From a bacterium (GTDB taxonomy: Bacteria; Bacteroidota; Ignavibacteria; UBA10030): a stretch of 27,812 bases of DNA. Numbering within the stretch: the stretch's first letter is position 1; each line of letters starts with the position of its first letter. A program made the translations under genes and the position numbers. Positions 3,408-21,987 of the stretch are shown in pieces. The notes below the pieces were generated by a model. That model had not been told where the DNA came from. It searched no databases and was given only the letters and a program-made list of their open reading frames with translations. The DNA is taken from the NCBI GenBank assembly GCA_043803945.1, contig JAZDJN010000117.1, positions 1 through 27,812 of the forward strand, written 5' to 3'.

Positions 3408-4307
3408 ATGCTAAAATCAAATTCTGCCAGGAAGCTTGCAGCACCAATTTCCCATCTAACACATTCCAGAAAGGTTTTGGCCTTTGGTTGGTACGGCGGG
3501 AAATATTCTCACCTTTCGTGGCTACTTCCAATGTTGCCCTCTTGTCACCATTACTGCGAGCCATTCGCCGGATCTGCTGCTATTCTCCTTAATAGACCGC
3601 CATCCCCCGTCGAAACTTACAATGACATAGACGGCGAGGTGGTTAATTTCTTCCGTGTGTTGCGAGAAGAAAAGGATCGACTTATTGAAGCAATAACTCT
3701 TACTCCCTTTTCTCGCGAGGAGTTTTCAAAGGCCTGTATGCTTGACCCAAGAGTAAGCAGTTTTGAGCGCGCCCGGCGGTTTTACATTCGCGCCAGACAA
3801 GTAAGGACTGGGTTAGCCCAAACTGCAAGCATTGGTCGTTGGGCTAACTGCAAGAATACTAGCCGAAGCGGAATGAGCGGTGTAATCAGTCGTTGGCTTG
3901 GAGGAGTAGATGATTTGGAAATTATTGCAAATCGTCTGCTTCGTGTACAAATAGAAAACAGACCTGCTATCGATGTCATAAAGCTATATGATTCCAAACA
4001 AACTCTCTTCTATTGCGATCCTCCCTATGTGCATGGAACAAGAGGCGACAAAAAAGCCTATGGGTTCGAAATGATTGACGACCAACATCGCGCGTTAGCG
4101 AGAGTTCTTAATCGCGTCAAAGGAATGGTCGCGATTTCAAATTATGATTGCGTCCTTATGGAAGAACTATATCCAAGCCCCAAATGGCGGAAGCATAAGA
4201 GTCCACTTCGCACTATTCATTCAACAAAAGACAAACGTCAAGAAACCCTTTGGGTTAATTTTAACATTGCAGCTACAAGAAACGAAATTTTACTATTCCA
4301 TGAATGA
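3408..4307 (+). CDS. Dam/D12-class (alpha-type) N6-adenine DNA methyltransferase
   Basis: Contains WYGGK, motif I EPFAGSAA, YNDIDGEVVNFF and motif IV YCDPPY, with a putative target-recognition region between motifs I and IV. Confidence 0.93.
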   Translation: MLKSNSARKLAAPISHLTHSRKVLAFGWYGGKYSHLSWLLPMLPSCHHYCEPFAGSAAILLNRPPSPVETYNDIDGEVVNFFRVLREEKDRLIEAITLTPFSREEFSKACMLDPRVSSFERARRFYIRARQVRTGLAQTASIGRWANCKNTSRSGMSGVISRWLGGVDDLEIIANRLLRVQIENRPAIDVIKLYDSKQTLFYCDPPYVHGTRGDKKAYGFEMIDDQHRALARVLNRVKGMVAISNYDCVLMEELYPSPKWRKHKSPLRTIHSTKDKRQETLWVNFNIAATRNEILLFHE

Positions 4308-5427
4308 TCCCGCAAAGATACTCGAATCTTACCTTGCCGAAGCAAACTCTCAAATTGATTCAAGCTTTGTCTCTGACCGAAATATCCGACAACTTATAGA
4401 GACCGTTTGCCGCTGCATTTCTAATCGCGCATCTACACGATTTCTTATGGCTTGTTGCCTCGGTAAAATCCACGAGCCAAATGTCGATATACGCAAACCC
4501 TACACAGAAATCTCTGGAGATGGAACATATTCTGGTCGGTCATATGACGAGCAATTTGTGGAGCCTTTTGTTCTCAAGAACCAACTACCGACCAACCAAA
4601 CAACTGCTTTCCTGACACCGGCCTTTCGCAACATCGACCGCACGCTTACAGTGAATTTGAAACTCGTTGGCCGTCCAGTTTCTCTTTATTCAAGCACATT
4701 AAAGCTTCTTGATGCCGTCTATAATGACGTACTATCACCAGTACTTCTACTCAAAGAAACAATCCGATTGCTCATTGTGATTAAGAATGAGAATGAGGAC
4801 CGGATGAGGCAACTATTGCGCCAACTTGAAAGCGTCCCGGATACGTTACCGCTTTCCTCTGAACAGATCCTTACACTTCTTCAACAACATCTTTCGAGCA
4901 AGAAGGTAAGTAGACTTCCAGTATTGATTATCGCCGCGGCTTACCATTCTGTTGGCTCGATGATCGGTGAAATCCCACGGGCGCTTCAATCGCACAATGC
5001 CGCGGATAGGCAAACGGGCGCTATTGGCGATATCGAGATCATGCTTGTCAACGAATCCAATGTCGTTACATGCTACGAGATGAAAGACAAGAAGGTCACA
5101 ATAACAGATATCCAAAATGCTGTGACTAAAATTTCCACACTTGATTATCACATTCAGAACTATATTTTCATCACAACAGGGTCAATTGAAGAATCTGTTC
5201 GAGATTTTGCTTTCACTCTTTATGAAAAAACTGCAGTGGAGTTTGTGGTGCTTGATTGTATCGGTTTTGCACGACACTTTCTCCATTTCTTTAATCGCTC
5301 TCGCATAAAATTCCTTGATACGTATCAGCACTTACTTCTTCAAGAACCTAATGGCTCTGTTGACCAATCACTCAAAGAGGCTTTTTTGGTATTGCGTAGA
5401 AACGCTGAAAGCGATCACGCCTCATAG
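4300..5427 (+). CDS. Type II restriction endonuclease, SacI-like PD-(D/E)xK family
   Basis: ATG 4300 overlaps the last 8 nt of the MTase, consistent with coupling. SHNAADRQTGAIGDIEI...CYEMKDK fits a (P)D...ExK active site and the AD-x3-G-x2-GDIE pattern I associate with SacI-family enzymes. Confidence 0.75.
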   Translation: MNDPAKILESYLAEANSQIDSSFVSDRNIRQLIETVCRCISNRASTRFLMACCLGKIHEPNVDIRKPYTEISGDGTYSGRSYDEQFVEPFVLKNQLPTNQTTAFLTPAFRNIDRTLTVNLKLVGRPVSLYSSTLKLLDAVYNDVLSPVLLLKETIRLLIVIKNENEDRMRQLLRQLESVPDTLPLSSEQILTLLQQHLSSKKVSRLPVLIIAAAYHSVGSMIGEIPRALQSHNAADRQTGAIGDIEIMLVNESNVVTCYEMKDKKVTITDIQNAVTKISTLDYHIQNYIFITTGSIEESVRDFAFTLYEKTAVEFVVLDCIGFARHFLHFFNRSRIKFLDTYQHLLLQEPNGSVDQSLKEAFLVLRRNAESDHAS

Positions 5428-5436
5428 CAATTCTGG

Positions 5437-5594
5437 TAACCGATATCCGCTCAAAAGACGGTGAACAAGCGTTCTCCAATAATATAAGCGCACAGAGGCT
5501 TTGTGAAATATAGAAGTGGTCATCAAGGAACTCGATTTATCCACAGCAAATTTGAAAGTTCACGTTGCCGCAGTCTATTTGCCATCAGTTAGTT
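5437..5594 (+). other. Possible degenerate integron attC-like site
   Basis: 5' part TAAC...ATCCGCTCAAAAGACGGTGAAC and 3' part GTTCACGTTGCCGCAGTCTATTTGCCATCAGTTAGTT. GTGAAC (5461-5466) pairs with GTTCAC (5558-5563). An RBS and ATG follow about 30 nt downstream. The outer arms pair poorly. Confidence 0.35.
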
Positions 5595-5624
5595 GGCGTA
5601 TGCAAAATTCAAGGAGGTCAGTCC

Positions 5625-6119
5625 ATGAATATGAAGCTTGCTTTGAGATCTTTTCTTCGGCAAAAAGGTTTTTTACCTCTTTCTCCACGAAATAAATTTT
5701 GGCATAAATTCCCTATTGTCCACACAACCGATATACAAACAGGCGAACAATTGAAGTTAGCGCGAATTAAGATCAAGAAAGAATTGCATAGAAAGAGCGG
5801 CCTGTACGCATATGTGAACAAAAAAGGAACACTTCTTTATGTTGGGAAATCAGAAAATCTTGCGGGACGTGTATATTCACATTATCAAGAAGCATTTCGC
5901 GGTGCGGGTGTTTGGCAAGCATTCTTTTCCAAATTCGCTGGCGAACTTACTATTCTCTGGTGCGAGATTTCGACCGACAGACAGCGAAGGGCAATCGAAG
6001 AAATGATCGAAGAAGCACAGCCGTCAGAATTCGAAAAACTCTATCCTCGAGGTAAACGCCGCCTGATCAGCAACTCCCCGCTACAAAGCAGCGGGATTCT
6101 CAATTCCACCACGACTTAA
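5625..6119 (+). CDS. Stand-alone GIY-YIG family nuclease
   Basis: SGLYAY...LLYVGKSENLAGRVYSHY provides the GIY/YIG motifs and the catalytic Arg, with a later RAIEE Glu. RBS AAGGAGG at 5611-5617 favours ATG 5625. Confidence 0.85.
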   Translation: MNMKLALRSFLRQKGFLPLSPRNKFWHKFPIVHTTDIQTGEQLKLARIKIKKELHRKSGLYAYVNKKGTLLYVGKSENLAGRVYSHYQEAFRGAGVWQAFFSKFAGELTILWCEISTDRQRRAIEEMIEEAQPSEFEKLYPRGKRRLISNSPLQSSGILNSTTT

Positions 6120-6291
6120 CTGAGGAACGTTAAGTATGTGGAATTGGAACATGCTGACCTCTACGAGATCCGTCCCGATAGGATGCATCTGGACAAGTCG
6201 GGGAAAGCGGAATGAGCACGCCCAAAAATAAAGCATAGCGCACAGAAGCTTTGTGAATTAGACATAACACCTGTGAAGTTTGGAGGATAGT

Positions 6292-6831
6292 ATGGAAACC
6301 TGCATAACAATGAAACGTGTTCTCCTGGAGGAGGCCAAGACAACTTATGCCATCACAGAAAAACTCTTTCGCCGAGTTACTGACGCAGATCTCTTGTGGA
6401 AGCCCACTACAGGCAAGAACTGGATGACCTTAGGACAACTCCTGATGCACTGCGCAAACTTCGGATGTGGTAAAGCTATTCAAGGTTTTGTAAAGGGGGA
6501 CTGGGGTATGCCCGAAGCGGTAGAACCAGTAGACTTAAACGCTGAACAGCATGTACCACCAGTGGCAATGTTACCCAGCGTCGAAAACGTCAAGCAGGCA
6601 TTGGAACTTCTTATGAACGACCGGAACCTCGCATTGCGCTGCATCGAGGAGACGGAGGAAGCTGATTTGTTGGCTAGAAGATTCACTGCACCATGGGGCG
6701 GTTCCGAGGCCTCGCTGTTCCAGCATCTCTTGCTTATGATTGCACATCTCGCTCAACATAAGGGTCAGCTCTTTTACTACCTAAAGTTGATGGAAAACGA
6801 TCTCAGCACCAGCGACCTTTGGGGCACATGA
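6292..6831 (+). CDS. DinB/YfiT-like four-helix putative metalloenzyme
   Basis: WKPT...MTLGQLLMH and HLAQHKGQLFYYLK give the three-His pattern. GGAGG RBS precedes ATG 6292. Confidence 0.85.
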   Translation: METCITMKRVLLEEAKTTYAITEKLFRRVTDADLLWKPTTGKNWMTLGQLLMHCANFGCGKAIQGFVKGDWGMPEAVEPVDLNAEQHVPPVAMLPSVENVKQALELLMNDRNLALRCIEETEEADLLARRFTAPWGGSEASLFQHLLLMIAHLAQHKGQLFYYLKLMENDLSTSDLWGT

Positions 6832-6832
6832 A

Positions 6833-7354
6833 ATGAAAATCTTCTTCTTTGGTCTTTTCCTAACGCTCACTGCTTTTGGACAACATTCTCATGAACAGAA
6901 GCAGTTAAAGCAGAATATCGACGTTGATAGATATACCGGTATTTATGAATATGTCTACCGTTATAATTCTCCCGGCTTAAAAGAAAATCATTATATCGTA
7001 CTGTCACGTTCCTCTAATACACTGGCAGGATTATATTACGGGACATCAGATGAATTCGATGAATCCAGAGAAGGTTATCTTCCAGGGTTCTTTGTTGCAC
7101 AAATGGATAGTCTAAAAATCCATGGAGATACAATTCGATTTACCTTAAAAGTCGCCAATAGTGATTTCTTAACAACAGCAGTTGATTTAAATATCAAGTC
7201 AACGACTGAAGCTCTCAAAGCGGGCTATAAGAATTGGGGCAATAAAATTCCTACTTCTCCAAAAAAATATGCAGGTTTGATTCAAGATTCAGTCACAATA
7301 TTCTTCAAAGGAGAGAAGGAGTTTTTGAATAAAACATTCAAGAAGAAGCAATAA
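6833..7354 (+). CDS. Hypothetical secreted protein
   Basis: 173 aa with a signal peptide (MKIFFFGLFLTLTAFG), starting 1 nt after the DinB stop. No family recognised. Confidence 0.7.
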   Translation: MKIFFFGLFLTLTAFGQHSHEQKQLKQNIDVDRYTGIYEYVYRYNSPGLKENHYIVLSRSSNTLAGLYYGTSDEFDESREGYLPGFFVAQMDSLKIHGDTIRFTLKVANSDFLTTAVDLNIKSTTEALKAGYKNWGNKIPTSPKKYAGLIQDSVTIFFKGEKEFLNKTFKKKQ

Positions 7355-7427
7355 CGCCACTCGACCGTAGTACTGATTTCGCAGGCAGAGCGGCCATCTA
7401 TACTATCACCGAAAAAGAGTCGTGAAC

Positions 7428-7652
7428 ATGGGAATTGTCGTTTCACTTAAGGATGTTGTGGAAGCATTAGAGCGGTCAAGTCAGACATTTGAATACATCC
7501 TTGATACCGAAACAGGGGAGGTTATTCTGATTACCGAAGACGATCGTATTACACTCGAAGGATCTGATACTGACTTTGTCCCGGAGTGGCAGATTGAACA
7601 CATACAATATTCTTCATCCTTTTCCCCAGGCACCAACAATCCACGATATTGA
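7428..7652 (+). pseudogene. Truncated UPF0158-like gene (N-terminal part only)
   Basis: VSLKDVVEALE...YILDTETGEVILITEDD...VPEWQ resembles the UPF0158 N-terminus. The frame then runs into the 3' end of the convergent hydrolase gene. Confidence 0.55.
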
Positions 7653-8351
7653 TAATTTGAGAGGAAGTATGTATCGGGTTGCAGGGCTATGATATGCATC
7701 ATCGAGCACGATATACTCTATAGAGACTCCTTTCTCTGTAAGCTTTCTGACCGCTTCATCTGTTTTTTCAATCGGCAGGATAACATCCAGGCGGCCATGG
7801 ATAATATACAATGGAATTTTCCAGTCGACGGAATACACCATCTCAGGCGGTTCGCCTGCGACGATAATCCCGCACGAGAAAATATCCTGATGGTTTCCGG
7901 CTAAATACCAGGTTCCTCTTCCACCCATGCTGTACCCTGTAAGCACGATTTTCTTGGGATATATTTTGTAATCCTTTTTGATGCTATCGATCAACATCAA
8001 CACATATTGCTCGCTGGTTTTATCCATCCAGTTCCCGCCCGCGGGGCAATCGGGTGCAATCATGATCGAGCGCAAACCGCGCAGTGAAGGTTCAACGAAC
8101 ATCTCGAGGAATTCTCTCCCGACATAGGGTTTTGCTTCACCGCTTACCCCATAATGAAGAGCGACAATGAGTGGAAGCGTATCGTTTGCAGAATAATTCT
8201 CCGGCAGCGCAACGGTGTAAAGATATCTTCCTGAAGAAAGCGACTTCTCTACGAACTGGCTTTTATGCTCGGGTTCATTCGCATCTGTAGTGCAAGCAGA
8301 AAATGTCCAGACAGAAAAGAACATAAGGAAAAGAAGAAAAAGCTTTTTCAT
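7614..8351 (-). CDS. Lipoprotein alpha/beta-hydrolase (esterase/predicted peptidase family)
   Basis: MKKLFLLF...FSAC lipoprotein signal, PLIVALH, nucleophile elbow GYSMGG, HGRLD and a C-terminal His. Start moved to ATG 8351. Confidence 0.85.
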   Translation of the reverse strand: MKKLFLLFLMFFSVWTFSACTTDANEPEHKSQFVEKSLSSGRYLYTVALPENYSANDTLPLIVALHYGVSGEAKPYVGREFLEMFVEPSLRGLRSIMIAPDCPAGGNWMDKTSEQYVLMLIDSIKKDYKIYPKKIVLTGYSMGGRGTWYLAGNHQDIFSCGIIVAGEPPEMVYSVDWKIPLYIIHGRLDVILPIEKTDEAVRKLTEKGVSIEYIVLDDAYHSPATRYILPLKLSISWIVGAWGKG

Positions 8352-8474
8352 GATCACACGCCTTTTGCAGCTAATAGACAAGGAGGAATGGGAATCGATT
8401 ACCTCAACTGATTGCACGAAAGGTAGCTCCCTGGATCATTTCTTCATAGATCTTTGTGATGAATAGGCTGCCAA

Positions 8475-9122
8475 TTATTCTAAAGAGTTCAACAAGTTTG
8501 GCGTGATGTCATTAATACTTTTCAGTATTTTCGCAGCACCAGGGAAGAGACTTCGCTTTGTCAGTTCAGTCGGAATGATCAGACAACGCAGCCCCGCGCG
8601 TTGAGCTGCGATGAGTCCGCGTTCAGAGTCCTCTACGGCGATACACTCATCCTTGCTCAATCCGACCCGCTCTATCGCGAGAATGTACCCTTCAGGGTCC
8701 GGTTTCACCTTTCCATAATCATCCGAAGTGAGAACAAAATCGAAATAGCGTTTCAGTCCGGTTGTTTGGTGAATGATCTCAAAATGATCACGATGCGAGC
8801 TCGTGACGACGGCCATTGTATATGTTCCATGCAATGCGCTTAACACAGTTTCTACTCCATTGATGATGATAGGCTCTTCACGAAGATACCGGGCATAGAG
8901 AGTTCCGCGTGCCTGCCGCATTGCCTCGATTTCAGTTTCGGAATACCCCTTCTCGGCCACCAGGTGCCAGGCTCCCCGGGCTTGCACAAGAAAAAGTTCA
9001 TAGAACAGATCGAAGGTCAAATCGATACCTGCCCCTGCAAAAATTTCCTTTGTTGCTCTGTAATAGAGATGTTCGGTATCGACCAGAATTCCGTCGTTGT
9101 CCCAAAAGATCGCTTTGACCAT
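8475..9122 (-). CDS. HAD-superfamily phosphatase (beta-PGM/CbbY-like subfamily IA)
   Basis: Motif I WDNDGILVDTE, VTSS, KPDPEGY and VEDSERG. Confidence 0.9.
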   Translation of the reverse strand: MVKAIFWDNDGILVDTEHLYYRATKEIFAGAGIDLTFDLFYELFLVQARGAWHLVAEKGYSETEIEAMRQARGTLYARYLREEPIIINGVETVLSALHGTYTMAVVTSSHRDHFEIIHQTTGLKRYFDFVLTSDDYGKVKPDPEGYILAIERVGLSKDECIAVEDSERGLIAAQRAGLRCLIIPTELTKRSLFPGAAKILKSINDITPNLLNSLE

Positions 9123-16551: not shown

Positions 16552-16814
16552 GAGAAATTCCTTCAAACAGAATTACCGTTTTTAGTGGTATCCGGCCATA
16601 AGCGCTTATGAAGTGTGGTAGAACTTTCGGACTCGTTGAATAATGGTACTCATCATTACTGTGGAATTCAATACAACACAGATATCTTTACTTTTAGTTT
16701 TCAAATTATCAAATTCTATAAGCTCAATTGAATACGAGGCTACATGCGGCAAGAATATTCTATCACTTCATAACCCATTCTGTCATTGCTTAATATTTCA
16801 GAGAAGGTAAATCT

Positions 16815-17297
16815 ATGAAATCGACATTTCGTTCACGCATTCCATGGCGTGAGAAGATGAACAGACCGCAAGAACCTCAGATCATCGAAATCACTCCGGC
16901 TATGCAGCAGCGATTCGGTACAGGTACAATGCTGATACCAACGCCGCGACTCATCGACGATTTGATAAAGAAAACACCCAAAGGCAAACTGCTGACCATC
17001 GGCGAGATTCGTAGACGGCTGGCGAAGGACTTTAAGGTCAATACCGTCTGTCCACTCACTACCGGCATTTTCATACGTATCGCAGCAGAGGCTGCAAACG
17101 AGGAGTTGATGGAGGGGAAAAAACGAGTGACTCCCTTCTGGCGTTTGATACGCAACGATGAAAGCTTACTGGAGAAAAATCCGGGTGGCATCGCAGGCCA
17201 GGCGAAGATGTTAAAAAACGAAAGCCACGAGATAATTTCCACCAAAGGAAAAAAGCTCCGGGTGAGTGAATTCGAAAAAAAACTAACGACACTGTAA
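16815..17297 (+). CDS. MGMT-family DNA-binding / alkyltransferase-like protein
   Basis: PKGKLLTIGEIR, CPLTTGIF, TPFWRLI at the PCHRV position, and QAKMLKNESH. Confidence 0.75.
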   Translation: MKSTFRSRIPWREKMNRPQEPQIIEITPAMQQRFGTGTMLIPTPRLIDDLIKKTPKGKLLTIGEIRRRLAKDFKVNTVCPLTTGIFIRIAAEAANEELMEGKKRVTPFWRLIRNDESLLEKNPGGIAGQAKMLKNESHEIISTKGKKLRVSEFEKKLTTL

Positions 17298-17401: not shown

Positions 17402-18559
17402 TCAATATTGGACTTGAACGAAATTGATTACTTGATTCTGAAAAGCGTATTCATAGTATAATATTGGCATGGCAAGATTTCTCATGTTGAAATCATTGAA
17501 CGCGTCACGAATCTCCTGCCAAAATGAAGTTGTACACATATTCAGTTCGAATTTCTTTCTTTTAAGTCTATTGCTCCCAGTGTTCGGAATTTCAGATGCG
17601 ACCACGATAGGTTGAATGTTAGCATTAATCGCGCCTTGTATATATTGGCTCGTCCAATTTACATACTTGAAAAGCTGGCGTGTGATGCTTGGACTTACTT
17701 GTTCATCTTTGAGTTCAATAATTCGATGCTGTCGAATATTACGTGGTAGATTCAATAAGGAAAAAACATCGATACTACGCATTCCAACTCCACACTTTAC
17801 TTCATTACCAAGCCAAATAATTTGATTGGCTGGTCCTGTGATTGCATCAAGTGTAGCATTAACACTAAGTCCAGCATTCTCAGTAAAATAGCCCTGTAGA
17901 TAAACCTCGAACGCTCTTCCTGCGCGTGCAAGTCTTAGTGCTTCCGGAAGTATTAGCGATGTAGGGTTAGTATGTCCTCCATAAGCATGCCTGCCATTTG
18001 GAACAACTCGGATTTCCTGTGCTGCAGGATCGTAGGTGAATCCGTCAGTATTGGTGTATGTAGTGAGGTGTCCATTATTTGCCCTCTGAATCATGTCCAT
18101 CAAACGATTAGATTCTTCAAGGGTCAATGGAGTGCAACCTCTTTGACCTTTCAGCTTCCTGTAGATTAAGCTCCATAATATTTCTTTTGCATAAATCGGC
18201 AAATCATCAAGCGCCTGATATTCAACGACTCCTTTCGCATAAACATCAGTTGGTTCAAGACGGACTCGGTAAATTAATTTCTTCCCAAGTTGTTGTTCCA
18301 AATAAGTTGGATTACCGTTGTCATGAACAACAAGTGGGTAGAGGTCAGCGACTTTGAATGCGCCGAAAAATCCCCCATCTATGCCAGCGCTTTCTTTTGT
18401 CTCCAAGTAAAAAATAACACGATCCCCTGGTCTGATTCTCTTGATGTCAGCCAACAATCCTGCATGATCATCAGCATCTGCTGCACCAGTTCCAGCAAAA
18501 AGATATTGCAGATGTATCGGAAAGGAACTTTCATTGACAATAAAGACATGTGTTTTCAT
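17402..18559 (-). CDS. Putative restriction endonuclease: EVE/PUA-like N-terminal domain plus NucS-like PD-(D/E)xK domain
   Basis: N-terminus ADIKRIRPGDRVIFYLE...FFGAFKV...YRVRLEP fits an EVE/PUA pattern. C-terminus FEVYLQGYF...NEV...SIDVF...IIELKD...RQLFKYVNW fits E...D...ExK...QxxxY. ATGA overlap with the upstream MTase. Confidence 0.72.
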   Translation of the reverse strand: MKTHVFIVNESSFPIHLQYLFAGTGAADADDHAGLLADIKRIRPGDRVIFYLETKESAGIDGGFFGAFKVADLYPLVVHDNGNPTYLEQQLGKKLIYRVRLEPTDVYAKGVVEYQALDDLPIYAKEILWSLIYRKLKGQRGCTPLTLEESNRLMDMIQRANNGHLTTYTNTDGFTYDPAAQEIRVVPNGRHAYGGHTNPTSLILPEALRLARAGRAFEVYLQGYFTENAGLSVNATLDAITGPANQIIWLGNEVKCGVGMRSIDVFSLLNLPRNIRQHRIIELKDEQVSPSITRQLFKYVNWTSQYIQGAINANIQPIVVASEIPNTGSNRLKRKKFELNMCTTSFWQEIRDAFNDFNMRNLAMPILYYEYAFQNQVINFVQVQY

Positions 18560-19689
18560 CTCGAAACCTTTTTAAAAAGCAGTATGTATTCGTGTTTGAA
18601 AATGTAGAATCCACCAACGAGCGCACGATATCGCCATAGTTCTTTCTGGTTACGTTTTGCAAGCGTTTCTTCAAAGTTTTTTACTATGATACCTTTGAGT
18701 ATATAACCATGCTTTAAAACTTCGTTCATTAGCATGAAACCTAAAGGGATCCATTCGCCTTTGGAATACTTGTCTCCTATTACAACTGCTAAGTAGCGAC
18801 CTTTTTCTAGCACGGGGAAAGTGTTGGAAACCACTTTTCCAAACATCTCAATAAAAGCTTCAGTTGATCCTGCATTCGAAAGATCTTTTGGATCCTTGCT
18901 GAATTTGATGATATCGTAATAGGGGGGATGCAGTATTAAAAGTTGCGCAGACTTCGCTCCGTGCGTCCTTAACAACTTTACAAAGTCAACTTCTGTGCTA
19001 TCCCCAACCTCAATGATAGTTTTTACTTTTTCGGCACTGTGATTTGTTGGGAAAGACTCTGAGAATAAATCCTCAGTCGCCGATCGCCATCCCATTTTTA
19101 GCAAACCTGTGGCTTTTAATGCAATCTCTGGTTGAAGTTCAACTCCTAAGCCATTTCTACCCAACCGTTGACACTCCAAGAGAGTGGTTCCACTTCCAGC
19201 AAAAGGATCAATCACCCAATCATCTTTTTTGGTATAACGAAGCATAAGCTGATGCGGGATCTGAGGGATGAAATTACCCCAATACCAAGAAGAATGCGGA
19301 CCGGAAGTATCTCTCTTCTGAAGTATCCAAAGGCTGTCGGTGAGAATGTTATCATATTCTTTCCAACGATTCAGATTGATTTCGTTAATCTTGGATGTTT
19401 TCGTTTCGGATATCGCTTTTACAAGTCTTGATAGATAATATTTTGCCCGCTCAATTGTCTGGGTTTTCTCTATTTGCTGAATTTCTTTGACTAAATATTT
19501 CTGCGAAATGGAAAAGGCCTCTCCATTTGTATCGATGTTCAGGACACCATCCACGTCATCTGTTGTCGAAGAGATGTCTTCTCTCAATTGAAAGAGTTGT
19601 TTACGCAATGTTGGTAAATCTTGAGTGGACGACATTTCTGAAAGCAGTTCTATCATCTTAGGCTTGTTGATTATTACTTCACTTTCCAT
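18556..19689 (-). CDS. N4-cytosine/N6-adenine DNA methyltransferase, permuted motif order, HPPY catalytic motif
   Basis: GNFIPQIP..LMLRYTKKDDWVIDPFAGSGTT (motifs X and I) precede LILHPPYYDII (motif IV, 18919-18930). Start moved to ATG 19689. Confidence 0.88.
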   Translation of the reverse strand: MESEVIINKPKMIELLSEMSSTQDLPTLRKQLFQLREDISSTTDDVDGVLNIDTNGEAFSISQKYLVKEIQQIEKTQTIERAKYYLSRLVKAISETKTSKINEINLNRWKEYDNILTDSLWILQKRDTSGPHSSWYWGNFIPQIPHQLMLRYTKKDDWVIDPFAGSGTTLLECQRLGRNGLGVELQPEIALKATGLLKMGWRSATEDLFSESFPTNHSAEKVKTIIEVGDSTEVDFVKLLRTHGAKSAQLLILHPPYYDIIKFSKDPKDLSNAGSTEAFIEMFGKVVSNTFPVLEKGRYLAVVIGDKYSKGEWIPLGFMLMNEVLKHGYILKGIIVKNFEETLAKRNQKELWRYRALVGGFYIFKHEYILLFKKVSR

Positions 19690-19952
19690 CTTATTCAATG
19701 TCGGGTTTAGTTTGTAGTTCGTTTTCCTAATCAATATATGAAATCGTGATAGCGTAAGCAAAATTGTGTATGTCAATCCCGAGTATAGATCCAGCAATCC
19801 CAGTCTTTGTTTCTGAAGAAATCGATTCCCATGGGTGAGAGCAAAAACTGAGCATGCAATGCCACCTCATTTTCTCCATTGCGCTTCAGTTTCTCTGTGC
19901 GTAGATTTCAGCCGTGGCAGTAAACCTGTTCTGTTTGCTAATCTGAACTGCA

Positions 19953-20087
19953 ATGAACGAATATCTCCTTACAGCAAGAATCCAGATCCCTTTGCCAAGG
20001 CCGCTGGTGCAACGACAATTGAACAGAATATTCGCCTATCGTAAAGAAGCTGTTGAACGTATTCTCCTCAGGAAGGAATCACACTGA
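19953..20087 (+). pseudogene. Internally deleted SRPBCC-like gene remnant (44 codons)
   Basis: Hand translation MNEYLLTARIQIPLPRPLVQRQLNRIFAYRKEAVERILLRKESH*. Resembles the N-terminal strand joined directly to the C-terminal helix (L-x-x-IF-x-YR) of SRPBCC proteins. Stop lies 1 nt before the creatininase ATG. Confidence 0.55.
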
Positions 20088-20088
20088 A

Positions 20089-20862
20089 ATGGCTGAGCCA
20101 TCACGACCATATCTCCTGCTCGAAACAAATTGGAAAACAATTCAAACCACTCACTATGAAGCTGCGGTACTGCCATGGGGAGCTACCGAACCGCATAACT
20201 ATCACCTCCCTTTCGGGACAGACATTCTTGAAGCAACAGCCATCGCCGCGGAGGCAGCGCGCATCGCATGGGAAGCCGGTGCAAAAATAATCGTCCTCCC
20301 TACCATTCCCTTCGGTGTCAACACCGGCCAGATCGATCTCAAGCTCACAATCAATATGAATCCAAGCACCCAGTTCATCGTGCTTCGCGACGTCGTCGAT
20401 TCGCTGAACAGACAAGGCATTCATAAACTCATCATTTTCAACAGCCATGGGGGAAATGATTTCCGGCAGATGATCCGCGAACTGCAGCCGATCTTTCCTG
20501 CAATGTTGATCTGTGTTATCAACTGGTGGCAGATCATCACGCAAAAAGATTTTTTTGAAGAACCAGATGACCATGCGGGTGAAATGGAGACAAGCGTTAT
20601 GCTCTCGCTGGCACCGTCTCTCGTGCTGCCGCTGTCAGAAGCCGGCGACGGAACGACGAAAGGATTTACGCTGAAGGCGCTGAAAGAAAAATGGGCATGG
20701 TCTCCCCGCGAATGGCGGAAAGTAACGGAAGACACCGGTGCGGGAAATCCCAGGAAGGCCACACAGGAAAAGGGAGAGCGCTATTTAAAAGCAGTGACAT
20801 TAAAAGTTGCGGATTTTCTTATAGAACTCTCAAAATCTGAACTCGATAGACTCTATGCATGA
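20089..20862 (+). CDS. Creatininase / creatinine amidohydrolase family protein
   Basis: LPWGATEPHNYHLPFGTD, NSHGGN and DHAGEMETS metal-binding motifs. Start at ATG 20089. Confidence 0.92.
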   Translation: MAEPSRPYLLLETNWKTIQTTHYEAAVLPWGATEPHNYHLPFGTDILEATAIAAEAARIAWEAGAKIIVLPTIPFGVNTGQIDLKLTINMNPSTQFIVLRDVVDSLNRQGIHKLIIFNSHGGNDFRQMIRELQPIFPAMLICVINWWQIITQKDFFEEPDDHAGEMETSVMLSLAPSLVLPLSEAGDGTTKGFTLKALKEKWAWSPREWRKVTEDTGAGNPRKATQEKGERYLKAVTLKVADFLIELSKSELDRLYA

Positions 20863-20895: not shown

Positions 20896-21987
20896 ATGGA
20901 GCATAAATCTATCCTTAAAAAGATTGTCACTAGTCCTACCTGGTCTGTTTTGAGTGTGATCCTTGCATTGGTTTTTTTCTTTTGGGATAATATTTATAAT
21001 CCATTTGATTTTAGGATGCTAATCGATGCTGAATTCACATTGATTGATGTAAAGGAACGAGTGAACGATTTAAAAATTCTTTATAAAGATTATGATTTGA
21101 TAGAGAGCAATAAGGAGATACGAGTTGTTACACTTACCATGTATAATAAAGGAAAAAATATTTTACAGGAAAGCTACGATCAACAACAACCATTCGGTCT
21201 GAAATTGAATGCAGGGATATTTCTTGGCTATGATGTTGTCAACTCCAATTCGGATTATCTAAACAATAATATTTTAGCCTATCAAAATATTAGTATTACC
21301 ACCAAGAAAGCAGACACTCATTCATCGTCCAAATCATCAGAACCAGATTCAACTATATTATATCTATCGAAATTAATATTTGAGAAAGAAAAATTTGTAA
21401 CATTGAAATTATATGTTTTGCGTCAAAGGGATTCAAGTCTTATTGAATTGACACCAATTGGAAAAATTGCAAATATCGAAAAGTTAGAAATTAGCAGGAA
21501 TCGGAGCGAAGAAAAAACCACAAATGACTTTTTTAAAAATTACTTAATTATCGCTATTCTACTTTATATGTTTATCAGCCCCATAATATTACGGGTTCGA
21601 TCGAGTAGAAAACAAAAGATTAAGGTTAATAAAATCCATTCCTATATAAGTGAAAATCCCAATCTATCAATAGAACAACTTAGGATAATCCGTATCTATG
21701 AAAACAATTGGAGTTGGAGATACACCGAAATAATTCAATCTTTATTATCTGGCGAAAAAGTAATCGATCTAAGAGACTATATAAAACCTGAGTTGGTAAG
21801 ACTTTTTAAAATACATCGAATATTTACAAACTTTGCACTTTACATCCGCAGGATTGAATTTGCTTACTTACCAGCGGAAGTCTTCACGGTTTCAAATACA
21901 ATGGTATCCATAAACAAAAAGCATCGAGAATTTCTTATGCATTTTTTCAAAGAAATGGACCTGATTCCAAATAAAGAAACTGAATAA
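20896..21987 (+). CDS. Hypothetical membrane protein (TM, beta-rich soluble domain, TM, helical tail)
   Basis: 363 aa with hydrophobic segments WSVLSVILALVFFFW and YLIIAILLYMFISPIIL. Visibly much more AT-rich than its neighbours. Confidence 0.75.
   Translation: MEHKSILKKIVTSPTWSVLSVILALVFFFWDNIYNPFDFRMLIDAEFTLIDVKERVNDLKILYKDYDLIESNKEIRVVTLTMYNKGKNILQESYDQQQPFGLKLNAGIFLGYDVVNSNSDYLNNNILAYQNISITTKKADTHSSSKSSEPDSTILYLSKLIFEKEKFVTLKLYVLRQRDSSLIELTPIGKIANIEKLEISRNRSEEKTTNDFFKNYLIIAILLYMFISPIILRVRSSRKQKIKVNKIHSYISENPNLSIEQLRIIRIYENNWSWRYTEIIQSLLSGEKVIDLRDYIKPELVRLFKIHRIFTNFALYIRRIEFAYLPAEVFTVSNTMVSINKKHREFLMHFFKEMDLIPNKETE

Follow-up and report, generated by a model that had tools for sequence, protein, structure and literature searches.

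When a domain of the PUA superfamily (SRA, EVE, YTH, or ASCH) is found on a nuclease, the combination is taken in bioinformatics as a sign of modification-dependent (Type IV) restriction. Part of the case for doing so is the absence of neighboring methylases: according to the available text of Lutz et al. 2019, a methylase lies within 3 kb for fewer than 6% of 350 open reading frames (ORFs) that encode PUA-nucleases (PMC6765204). This agrees with a preliminary description of the DNA that we consider here, which had stated that fusions of EVE or PUA domains to nucleases normally come without a methyltransferase of their own. A 2025 review, at least in its available sections, also discusses PUA domains as tools of enzymes that depend on modification, and those sections mention LlaJI as a case in which McrBC-type machinery is paired with methylases and directed at unmodified DNA (PMC12707154). 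Here we describe a family of nucleases that breaks the rule. Its representative lies in a 27,812-nucleotide stretch from a bacterium of the Ignavibacteria (UBA10030; GenBank assembly GCA_043803945.1, contig JAZDJN010000117.1, positions 1 to 27,812), and by the window we mean this whole stretch. On the minus strand of the window, a methyltransferase gene with an HPPY motif is followed by the gene for a nuclease that is predicted to combine an N-terminal EVE domain with a C-terminal NucS-like domain. We will call this protein the EVE-NucS nuclease and the methyltransferase family M1.

We think that these two genes form a mobile, Type II-like restriction-modification (R-M) module that probably acts by way of N6-methyladenine (m6A) at CATG, with the EVE-NucS nuclease as a restriction enzyme that is blocked by methylation. 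We put the probability of this explanation at about one half. The decisive evidence was context from beyond the window: relatives of the nuclease lie in NlaIII/IceA-type cassettes, along with a second methylase, of the D12 class. The nuclease family, which is small and well defined, occurs in bacteria, in archaea, and on a few viral contigs, and nearly always in the company of one of these two methylase families. A search of the literature did not find any description of an EVE-NucS nuclease in an NlaIII-type system, or in any methylase-linked system, and REBASE or supplementary tables may list members. In the parts that are available, Bell et al. 2020 do not mention NlaIII, IceA, or NucS (PMC7641849), and Iyer et al. 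2016 note only ASCH domains together with N6-adenine methylases (PMC4738411).

The nuclease is encoded at 17402-18559 (385 amino acids plus a stop codon), and the methyltransferase is encoded at 18556-19689 (377 amino acids if counted from an ATG). The genes share the bases ATGA at 18556-18559, in which the TGA stop of the methyltransferase overlaps the ATG start of the nuclease, and this points to translational coupling. Most of the related loci that have only M1 with the nuclease look similar, with M1 upstream and a gap of 0-14 nucleotides. A longer frame for the methyltransferase that starts with TTG reaches 19797 (18556-19797). Homologues and the PADLOC model begin to align at residues 1-5 of the shorter form, so its ATG at 19689 is the likely start. 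To judge from their homologues, both genes are genuine: at E <= 1e-3, the nuclease family has 2223 members (as clusters at 90% identity, or 472 clusters at 50% identity), and the methyltransferase has at least 6846 homologues among 8000 scored candidates. GC content is 0.38-0.43 from 16.5 to 20 kb, as compared to 0.48-0.52 in the flanks and 0.465 for the whole 5.54-Mb genome. Both the overlapping pair of minus-strand genes and their high AT content had been noticed in the preliminary description, and both hold up. A scan for promoters and terminators was not informative, with 9 promoter-like sites when 8.6 were expected and 0 terminators when 3.1 were expected.

The short motifs IRPGDRVIFY and FFGAFKV are present in the nuclease, as are E218, D264, E282-L-K284, and Q295LFKY299. 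These motifs had suggested an EVE/PUA-like N-terminus and a PD-(D/E)xK C-terminus, and structure prediction bears out both. An AlphaFold2 (AF2) model that was built with 34 homologues has a predicted local distance difference test score (pLDDT) of 87.9 and a predicted template-modeling score (pTM) of 0.85. In this model, residues 1-158 (18086-18559) form an EVE domain. With VIA-align, they match the EVE protein PH1033 at Z 14.2, with a root-mean-square deviation (rmsd) of 2.4 over 135 of 143 residues, and Foldseek finds 1wmm at E 2.7e-5. They also match the EVE domain of VcaM4I (Z 11.2, rmsd 3.6, 141 residues aligned), 2ar1 (Z 11.6), THYN1 in complex with DNA that contains 5-methylcytosine (Z 10.4), YTH domains (about 9.5), and ASCH domains (9.0). 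The resemblance at the level of sequence is faint: Pfam's PF01878 scores 18.4 bits (E 0.0022), which is under its cutoff of 23 bits, and a search of the PDB with a profile of the family found no EVE entry, its sole match being NucS at E 0.77. Within the family, residues H4, H16, D38, D46, F50, G66, R98, E113, W129, Y133, R134, K135, and R140 of the EVE domain are conserved in 81 or more of the 83 sequences. The conserved F50, Y51, F64, W129, and Y133 are candidate residues of its pocket.

The second domain of the model, at residues 217-379 (17423-17911), resembles the RecB-like nuclease domain of NucS (2vld; Z 9.8, rmsd 2.6, 108 residues aligned), and Foldseek concurs. The protein as a whole is not a NucS equivalog. 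The NCBIfam model NF003270 matches only residues 279-340, with E 0.0016 and 17.6 bits against a cutoff of 216, and only the C-terminal domain matches NucS structurally. By their motifs, E218 (17906-17908), D264, E282-x-K284, and Q295xxxY299 make up an active site of the RecB/NucS type. In the catalytic core (17663-17770), D264, E282, K284, Q295, and Y299 are each identical in 79 of the 79 sequences, out of 83, that are ungapped there, regardless of gene context, and E218 is kept in 79 of 80. Because these residues are so well conserved, we predict that the nuclease is catalytically active.

Modeling also supports a symmetric homodimer. The interface score (ipSAE) is 0.51, the best control scored 0.00, runs agree on at least 88% of the contacts, and the pLDDT is at least 88. 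Of 30 proteins whose solved structures pair a chain with itself, 20 reached an ipSAE of 0.51, as did 1 of 23 with single-chain structures. A homodimer is what one would expect of a Type II enzyme with a palindromic site. At the center of the predicted interface is a loop of the EVE domain (residues 113-127; 18179-18223), and the contacts with the lowest predicted error are between residues 120-127 of one subunit and residues 120-127 of its partner.

The methyltransferase matches Pfam's N6_N4_Mtase (3.4e-21) in two pieces, which indicates a permuted order, and a PADLOC model for Type II methyltransferases (PDLC03351) covers residues 1-374 at 2.5e-137. Motif I (DPFAGSGTT, residues 161-169, at 19183-19209), which is expected to bind S-adenosylmethionine (SAM), precedes motif IV (HPPY, residues 254-257, at 18919-18930). 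We aligned 67 M1 sequences: the window's, a second copy from the same genome, and those that lie beside homologues of the nuclease. FxGxGT has the same F, G, G, and T in all 65 sequences that are ungapped there. In HPPY, the H and the Y are invariant in 66 of 66, and the first P is found in 65 of 66. A histidine at the first position is unusual as compared to the (D/N/S)PP(Y/F) type. The best matches by sequence in the PDB are a Thermus putative DNA methylase of the TTHA0409 type (6.5e-13) and "DpnA" 5hek (2.7e-5). In the AF2 model (pLDDT 76.4), the nearest folds are methyltransferases of the Trm11/Trm14 type, which act on exocyclic amino groups, with Trm11 at the top; otherwise, the search returned generic Rossmann-fold amino-methyltransferases, with no pointer to specificity. 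The likeness to Trm11 and Trm14 is consistent with the order of the motifs and is silent about the target site.

M1 comes in two forms. The long form, as in the window, has around 95 additional residues at its N-terminus (residues 1-95; 19405-19689), which the model shows as a small alpha/beta domain (pLDDT 74-93). The short form lacks them. Among the M1 genes beside nuclease homologues, which form is present depends on the company: all 20 long forms are at loci without the D12 methylase, and all 39 that are accompanied by the D12 methylase are short. Just six short forms are found without D12, and four of these are interrupted by the ends of contigs. The second copy of M1 in the window's genome (contig C65, at 4959-9021 of locus L081) is also a long form. 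It has 355 amino acids, is 59% identical to the window's, and matches PDLC03351 at 8.2e-145. Downstream of it are a 212-amino-acid ORF with no family match, a truncated integrase, and an IS91-type transposase. This arrangement implies that M1 methylases partner with at least three unrelated downstream genes.

To see how consistently the nuclease is accompanied by a methylase, consider 80 genome loci with a homologue of the nuclease, for which we searched within 4 kb of the nuclease with hidden Markov models. These loci are from Omnitrophota, Ignavibacteria, Kryptonia, WOR-3, Chloroflexota, Nitrospirota, archaea, Bacteroidales, Clostridia, Treponema, Alphaproteobacteria, Elusimicrobia, and Helicobacter canis, among others. 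M1, an IceA-like gene, and the D12 methylase are found together at 35 loci, with M1 in its short form, and M1 alone is found at 23 loci. The rest have D12 only (5 loci), M1 and D12 (4), IceA and D12 (4), M1 and IceA (3, two of which are cut by contig ends), IceA only (1, where the contig is cut), or none of the three (5). At 74 of the 80 loci, then, M1 and/or D12 is within 4 kb of the nuclease; searching with tblastn and the window's methyltransferase gave matches in 67. As for the six loci without either methylase, two have fragments of M1 at contig ends (L005 and L074), and in three the same genome has M1 and/or D12 on other contigs (L049, L058, and L069). Only L017 is without either, and there the nuclease begins at the edge of a contig in a 1.2-Mb bin. 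All told, M1 and/or D12 accompanies the nuclease in 79 of 80 genomes. This is not chance, and the genomic association is obligate. The suggestion in the preliminary description that an HPPY methyltransferase and the nuclease are a coupled pair is borne out.

By two of its features the pair looks like Type II: the methyltransferase and endonuclease genes are separate and adjacent, and the methyltransferase has both SAM-binding motif I and motif IV. The constancy with which the nuclease keeps a methylase is a third. As in Type IV systems, a PUA-superfamily domain is joined to a nuclease, and in contrast to those systems, a methyltransferase is nearby. One alternative is that the nuclease is nevertheless a Type IV enzyme that happens to sit beside a methylase system. 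Its EVE domain would read a foreign modification, such as 5-hydroxymethylcytosine-type or hypermodified bases, and it would back up CATG-specific R-M by acting on phages that evade the latter. Methylation by the linked enzyme would shield the host from off-target cutting. This scheme comes close to the DpnI/DpnII-like one of the preliminary description. The nearest characterized architectures do depend on modification, namely the EVE-HNH enzyme VcaM4I, to which the Z of 11.2 refers (PMC6765204, available text), and Madara. Madara, as far as its description goes, restricts T4 with glucosylated hydroxymethylcytosine and cooperates with BREX (10.64898/2026.09.05.749240). Also, a plasmid of the haloarchaeon Halobaculum limi (NZ_CP120469.1, 153888-155060; L164) encodes a hypothetical protein that is distantly homologous to the nuclease (24.9% identical over 73% of the query), and no DNA methylase is annotated within 5 kb on either side of its gene. 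Remote relatives of the nuclease may be independent of methylases. In the annotated collections that we searched, this was the only match on a plasmid, and the annotated phage collection had no match. On the other hand, such an enzyme would not require a methylase, yet nearly every genome with the nuclease holds one of the two families. Lutz et al. reported the reverse for PUA-type modification-dependent enzymes. Also, 23 loci consist of just a methylase and the nuclease, translationally coupled. We consider a Type IV enzyme to be an unlikely explanation and the DpnI/DpnII-like idea to be a minor rival only.

We give almost no credence to another suggestion from the preliminary description, that the methylase marks incoming nucleic acid and that the EVE-nuclease destroys what has been marked. 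What speaks for it is the general rule that EVE and YTH folds bind methylated bases. A methylase that is constitutively co-expressed would also place its mark on the host's chromosome, which would make the system suicidal, and nothing in the locus hints at how methylation would be directed at invaders.

Returning to the methylation-blocked restriction enzyme that we favor, the strongest clues to its specificity are from the larger cassettes. In 35 loci, four genes (M1-short, IceA, the EVE-nuclease, and D12) stay together, even as their order varies. In many loci M1 and the nuclease are separated by an IceA gene (PF05315, up to 1.3e-119) or by a gene for a more distantly related protein, which matches PADLOC's REase_II model PDLC03537. 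Overall, 43 of the 80 loci have an IceA/NlaIII-like gene. The D12 methylases at 48 of the 80 loci belong to one closely related family: they share the DPPY motif, match PADLOC's PDLC03257, and are 48-66% identical to each other (as measured for 14 sequences). In H. canis, the nuclease is immediately upstream of the D12 methylase gene and overlaps it by 1 nucleotide. The same slot in H. pylori, upstream of hpyIM, is taken by iceA1. IceA1 is the Helicobacter homologue of R.NlaIII, which cuts at CATG. In Campylobacter jejuni ST-677, the "IceA1 gene cluster" has two methylases as well as a gene that is called a homolog of IceA1/NlaIII, and two of its locus tags go unmentioned in the available description (PMC4202330). 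The EVE-NucS family fills in a gene in iceA1-type clusters, and these two tags are candidates for it. Next to some of the four-gene cassettes are ORFs of approximately 205 amino acids with no match in Pfam (L030, 7957-8577, which has no match in PADLOC either, and L076, 295-912), and these may be a further accessory gene. Other CATG systems add little here. UpaP162 from Ureaplasma is described as a blunt cutter at CATG with "no predicted domain," beside a methylase that is annotated as m5C-type (PMC6191088, available text), and the available portion of a Fusobacterium preprint on M.Fnn23.I, which is specific for CATG, gives no information about its family.

Since the nuclease can have M1 as its sole partner (23 loci) or have D12 and no M1 at the locus (9 loci), both methylases probably lay down the same protective mark, presumably Cm6ATG, which the nuclease would sense. 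The genes that accompany the relatives of the pair make N6 of the adenine in CATG the most likely target of M1. In six of the nine genomes with D12 and without M1 at the locus, including the draft genome of the type strain of H. canis, we did not find M1 anywhere. From these combinations it follows that either methylase suffices and that IceA is optional. We also considered whether M1 might be the obligate protector, with D12 and IceA as a separate system, and these six genomes rule that out. We built a tree from 79 nuclease sequences, having dropped 4 of the 83 for coverage under 70%, and rooted it at the midpoint. It splits an environmental clade, which includes the window and is almost purely M1-only, from host-associated clades, in which the four-gene cassette dominates with scattered reductions. 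In the window's M1-only clade (23 loci), the EVE-NucS protein is the only nuclease. We also searched the window's own genome by tblastn, using three IceA-type and three D12 sequences, and neither IceA nor the CATG-linked D12 turned up.

Two nucleases in one cassette call for some explanation, and this brings up an alternative in which the EVE-nuclease is an alarm rather than a restriction enzyme. The methylase would load the host genome with m6A; N6-methyl-dAMP (m6-dAMP) or m6A-containing fragments that are released as a phage degrades the chromosome would bind in the EVE domain's pocket; and this would activate a non-specific nuclease and lead to abortive infection. There is a precedent: a PUA-like domain is reported to sense m6-dAMP that is derived from Dam methylation, and the same PUA-like family is said also to sit in R-M operons with N6-adenine methylases and to be linked to methylases in the absence of restriction enzymes (10.64898/2026.01.15.699771, available text). 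In an alarm, the seeming redundancy of the 35 four-gene cassettes would vanish, with the EVE-nuclease as a second layer behind NlaIII-like R-M, and it would make sense that either of two unrelated methylase families is enough. The C-terminal part of the nuclease also resembles the ligand-activated effectors Card1 (Z 8.2) and Can2 (Z 7.6-7.7), but Z values of 7-8 are at the level of a common fold. An alarm could use any source of m6A, and the partners are limited to two CATG-linked methylase families. In H. canis the nuclease occupies the slot of a restriction gene next to the D12 methylase, and the window's domain fits EVE proteins best. We doubt that the nuclease is an alarm. If it is, this would generalize danger signaling that is derived from the methylome, would extend the m6-dAMP signal to a nuclease with a dedicated methylase, and would explain why the gene is present inside complete NlaIII-type R-M cassettes.

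The module was acquired horizontally and has a patchy distribution, as the nuclease family is in 0 of the 40 nearest relatives of the source genome and in 2 of 401 genomes in a sample of the phylum, and its GC content is low. In the other carrier from that sample (G295), M1-long is directly upstream of the nuclease. Two contigs from IMG/VR carry the nuclease, and one of these viral contigs (L082) has the same M1-nuclease pair. At 3 of the 80 loci (L024, L025, and L068), a truncated or split nuclease lies beside an M1 gene, a pattern of decay that is typical of R-M systems. We also selected 80 viral loci with the profile for the D12 methylase (L084-L163), many of which are from giant-virus bins. 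In 16 of these, IceA is adjacent, and in the other 64 the CATG-linked D12 is by itself, with no M1, IceA, or EVE-nuclease beside it. One locus has all four genes, and L098 is the only one with a homologue of the nuclease. The chlorovirus enzyme R.CviAII, which is specific for CATG, may be close in size to the EVE-NucS nuclease. The lone D12 genes of viruses and giant viruses are consistent with self-methylation that evades NlaIII-type restriction.

Such a distribution bears on whether the pair has a role in defense at all. It might instead perform methyl-directed repair or strand discrimination, similar to MutH and Dam, or it might act on RNA, with an m2G-type methylase and an EVE domain that reads RNA. 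The NucS-like domain does derive from a family of mismatch-repair nucleases, the M1 model is nearest to the tRNA m2G methyltransferases Trm11 and Trm14, and RNA is a frequent ligand of EVE and PUA folds (PMC6765204, available text). Against this, the genes are mobile and patchy (missing from all 40 relatives, present on viral contigs, and low in GC), relatives are embedded in NlaIII-type R-M cassettes, and M1 matches a model for Type II DNA methylases over its full length. We therefore think that a role outside of defense is very improbable.

If the pair is instead a restriction system that is blocked by methylation, we envision that it works as follows. M1-long would mark the DNA of the host, with N6 of the adenine in CATG as the most likely position. 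The translationally coupled EVE-NucS protein, as a homodimer and as the module's only nuclease, would cut DNA that lacks the mark. By analogy to NucS/EndoMS, whose N-terminal domains deal with flipped mismatched bases, the EVE domains of the dimer might flip out and inspect the target adenines. An unmethylated base would license cutting by the C-terminal domains, and an N6-methyl group either would not fit in the EVE pocket or would veto cleavage. This would make the EVE fold a checker of unmodified bases, which would be a new principle of recognition and possibly the source of a new CATG-type reagent. It would also be the first "negative reader" in the PUA family, licensing cleavage only at unmethylated sites.

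Several observations weigh against this explanation and are why we do not rate it higher. An NlaIII-like restriction gene is already present at 43 of the 80 loci, where a second enzyme of the same specificity seems redundant. The characterized fusions of PUA or EVE domains to nucleases are all modification-dependent and without a methylase, in the available texts of PMC6765204 and PMC12707154, and Madara, a protein with NucS-like and EVE-like parts, was reported as Type IV in 2026 (10.64898/2026.09.05.749240, available text). None of PADLOC's models for restriction endonucleases, which derive from REBASE, matches the nuclease. As to the methylase, its fold is nearest to tRNA m2G methyltransferases, which leaves the PADLOC match and the gene context as the basis for a DNA target, and its paralogue in the same genome is beside an unrelated 212-amino-acid ORF, so the M1 family may lack a single specificity. 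In one genome (G003), the nuclease appears to be intact, and yet the sole match to M1 contains an internal TGA. Finally, the ratio of observed to expected CATG in the window's genome is 0.79, which is the third lowest of the 16 palindromic 4-mers (after CTAG at 0.51 and GGCC at 0.74). This depletion is mild and is not diagnostic. On balance, of the interpretation in the preliminary description, the atypical EVE/PD-(D/E)xK nuclease with an HPPY methyltransferase stands; of its three mechanisms, a PUA fold that has been repurposed to read an unmodified site is the one that we favor, and the marking of invaders is disfavored.

Some other features of the window stand out. An imperfect 23-nucleotide direct repeat (78% identity; 16810-16832 and 19733-19755) flanks the R-M pair and a 160-amino-acid ORF. 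With just two copies, it may be due to chance, or it could mark the ends of an inserted segment. The 160-amino-acid ORF (16815-17297, plus strand) lies between the 3' end of the nuclease gene and a GH94 phosphorylase gene, has low GC content like the module, and matches the MGMT DNA-binding domain PF01035 below the threshold (E 0.0091). On the other side of the pair, beyond a creatininase-family gene (20053-20862), is a 363-amino-acid ORF (20896-21987, plus strand) with a GC content of only 0.30-0.31 and no matches in Pfam, NCBIfam, or PADLOC; it is possibly another foreign insertion. A further putative R-M-like module is at 3408-6119 (plus strand, GC 0.39-0.45). It begins with a D12-class methylase (3408-4307; PF02086 at 9.5e-24, PADLOC PDLC03244 at 1e-53), from a different subfamily than the CATG-linked D12 of the nuclease cassettes. 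This gene is overlapped by a 427-amino-acid ORF (4144-5427) with no match in Pfam or PADLOC, and downstream of that is a 184-amino-acid ORF (5565-6119) with a weak match to GIY-YIG (6.8e-6).

How does the pair compare to the systems that are already known? The most similar architectures are among Type IV enzymes. The VcaM4I/TspA15I group likewise has an N-terminal EVE domain fused to a C-terminal nuclease, but that nuclease is HNH rather than PD-(D/E)xK, the enzymes need modified DNA, and methylases are rarely nearby, as discussed above (PMC6765204, available text). Judging from its description, Madara has both types of fold in one protein and sits beside a methylation-based defense (BREX); it differs in that the order of domains is reversed, with the nuclease at the N-terminus, in its dependence on modified T4, and in lacking a dedicated Type II methylase (10.64898/2026.09.05.749240). 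The m6-dAMP sensor PUA-Cal-HAD also has a pocket domain of the PUA superfamily that depends on host adenine methylation, but as described it is a filament-forming Calcineurin-CE/HAD nucleotide sink that relies on the housekeeping Dam, whereas in the window a nuclease is accompanied by a dedicated methylase (10.64898/2026.01.15.699771). Neither of the window's two genes contains a Calcineurin-CE or HAD domain, and a HAD-family ORF at 8475-9122 is 8 kb away in an unrelated context. NucS/EndoMS shares the C-terminal RecB-like domain and the E-x-K...QxxxY motif, and as a dimer with an N-terminal domain that inspects bases, it is our model for the mechanism; the window's protein has an EVE domain instead of the N-terminal domain of NucS, and its context is R-M rather than repair. 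DpnII has two methylases, DpnM (D12) and DpnA (N6_N4), the latter having a role in methylating single-stranded DNA, and one restriction enzyme. The four-gene relatives likewise combine a D12 methylase with a short one of the N6_N4 type, but they have two nuclease genes, and the site of DpnII is GATC instead of the presumed CATG. This leaves the Type IIP systems for CATG, NlaIII and HpyI (iceA1-hpyIM). The window's genome has neither IceA nor their D12 methylase, the EVE-NucS nuclease is unrelated to IceA, the methylase is from an HPPY family, and we infer the CATG site from relatives. Nevertheless, those relatives lie inside cassettes of just this kind, and we propose that the logic is the same: a methylase together with a nuclease that is blocked by its mark.

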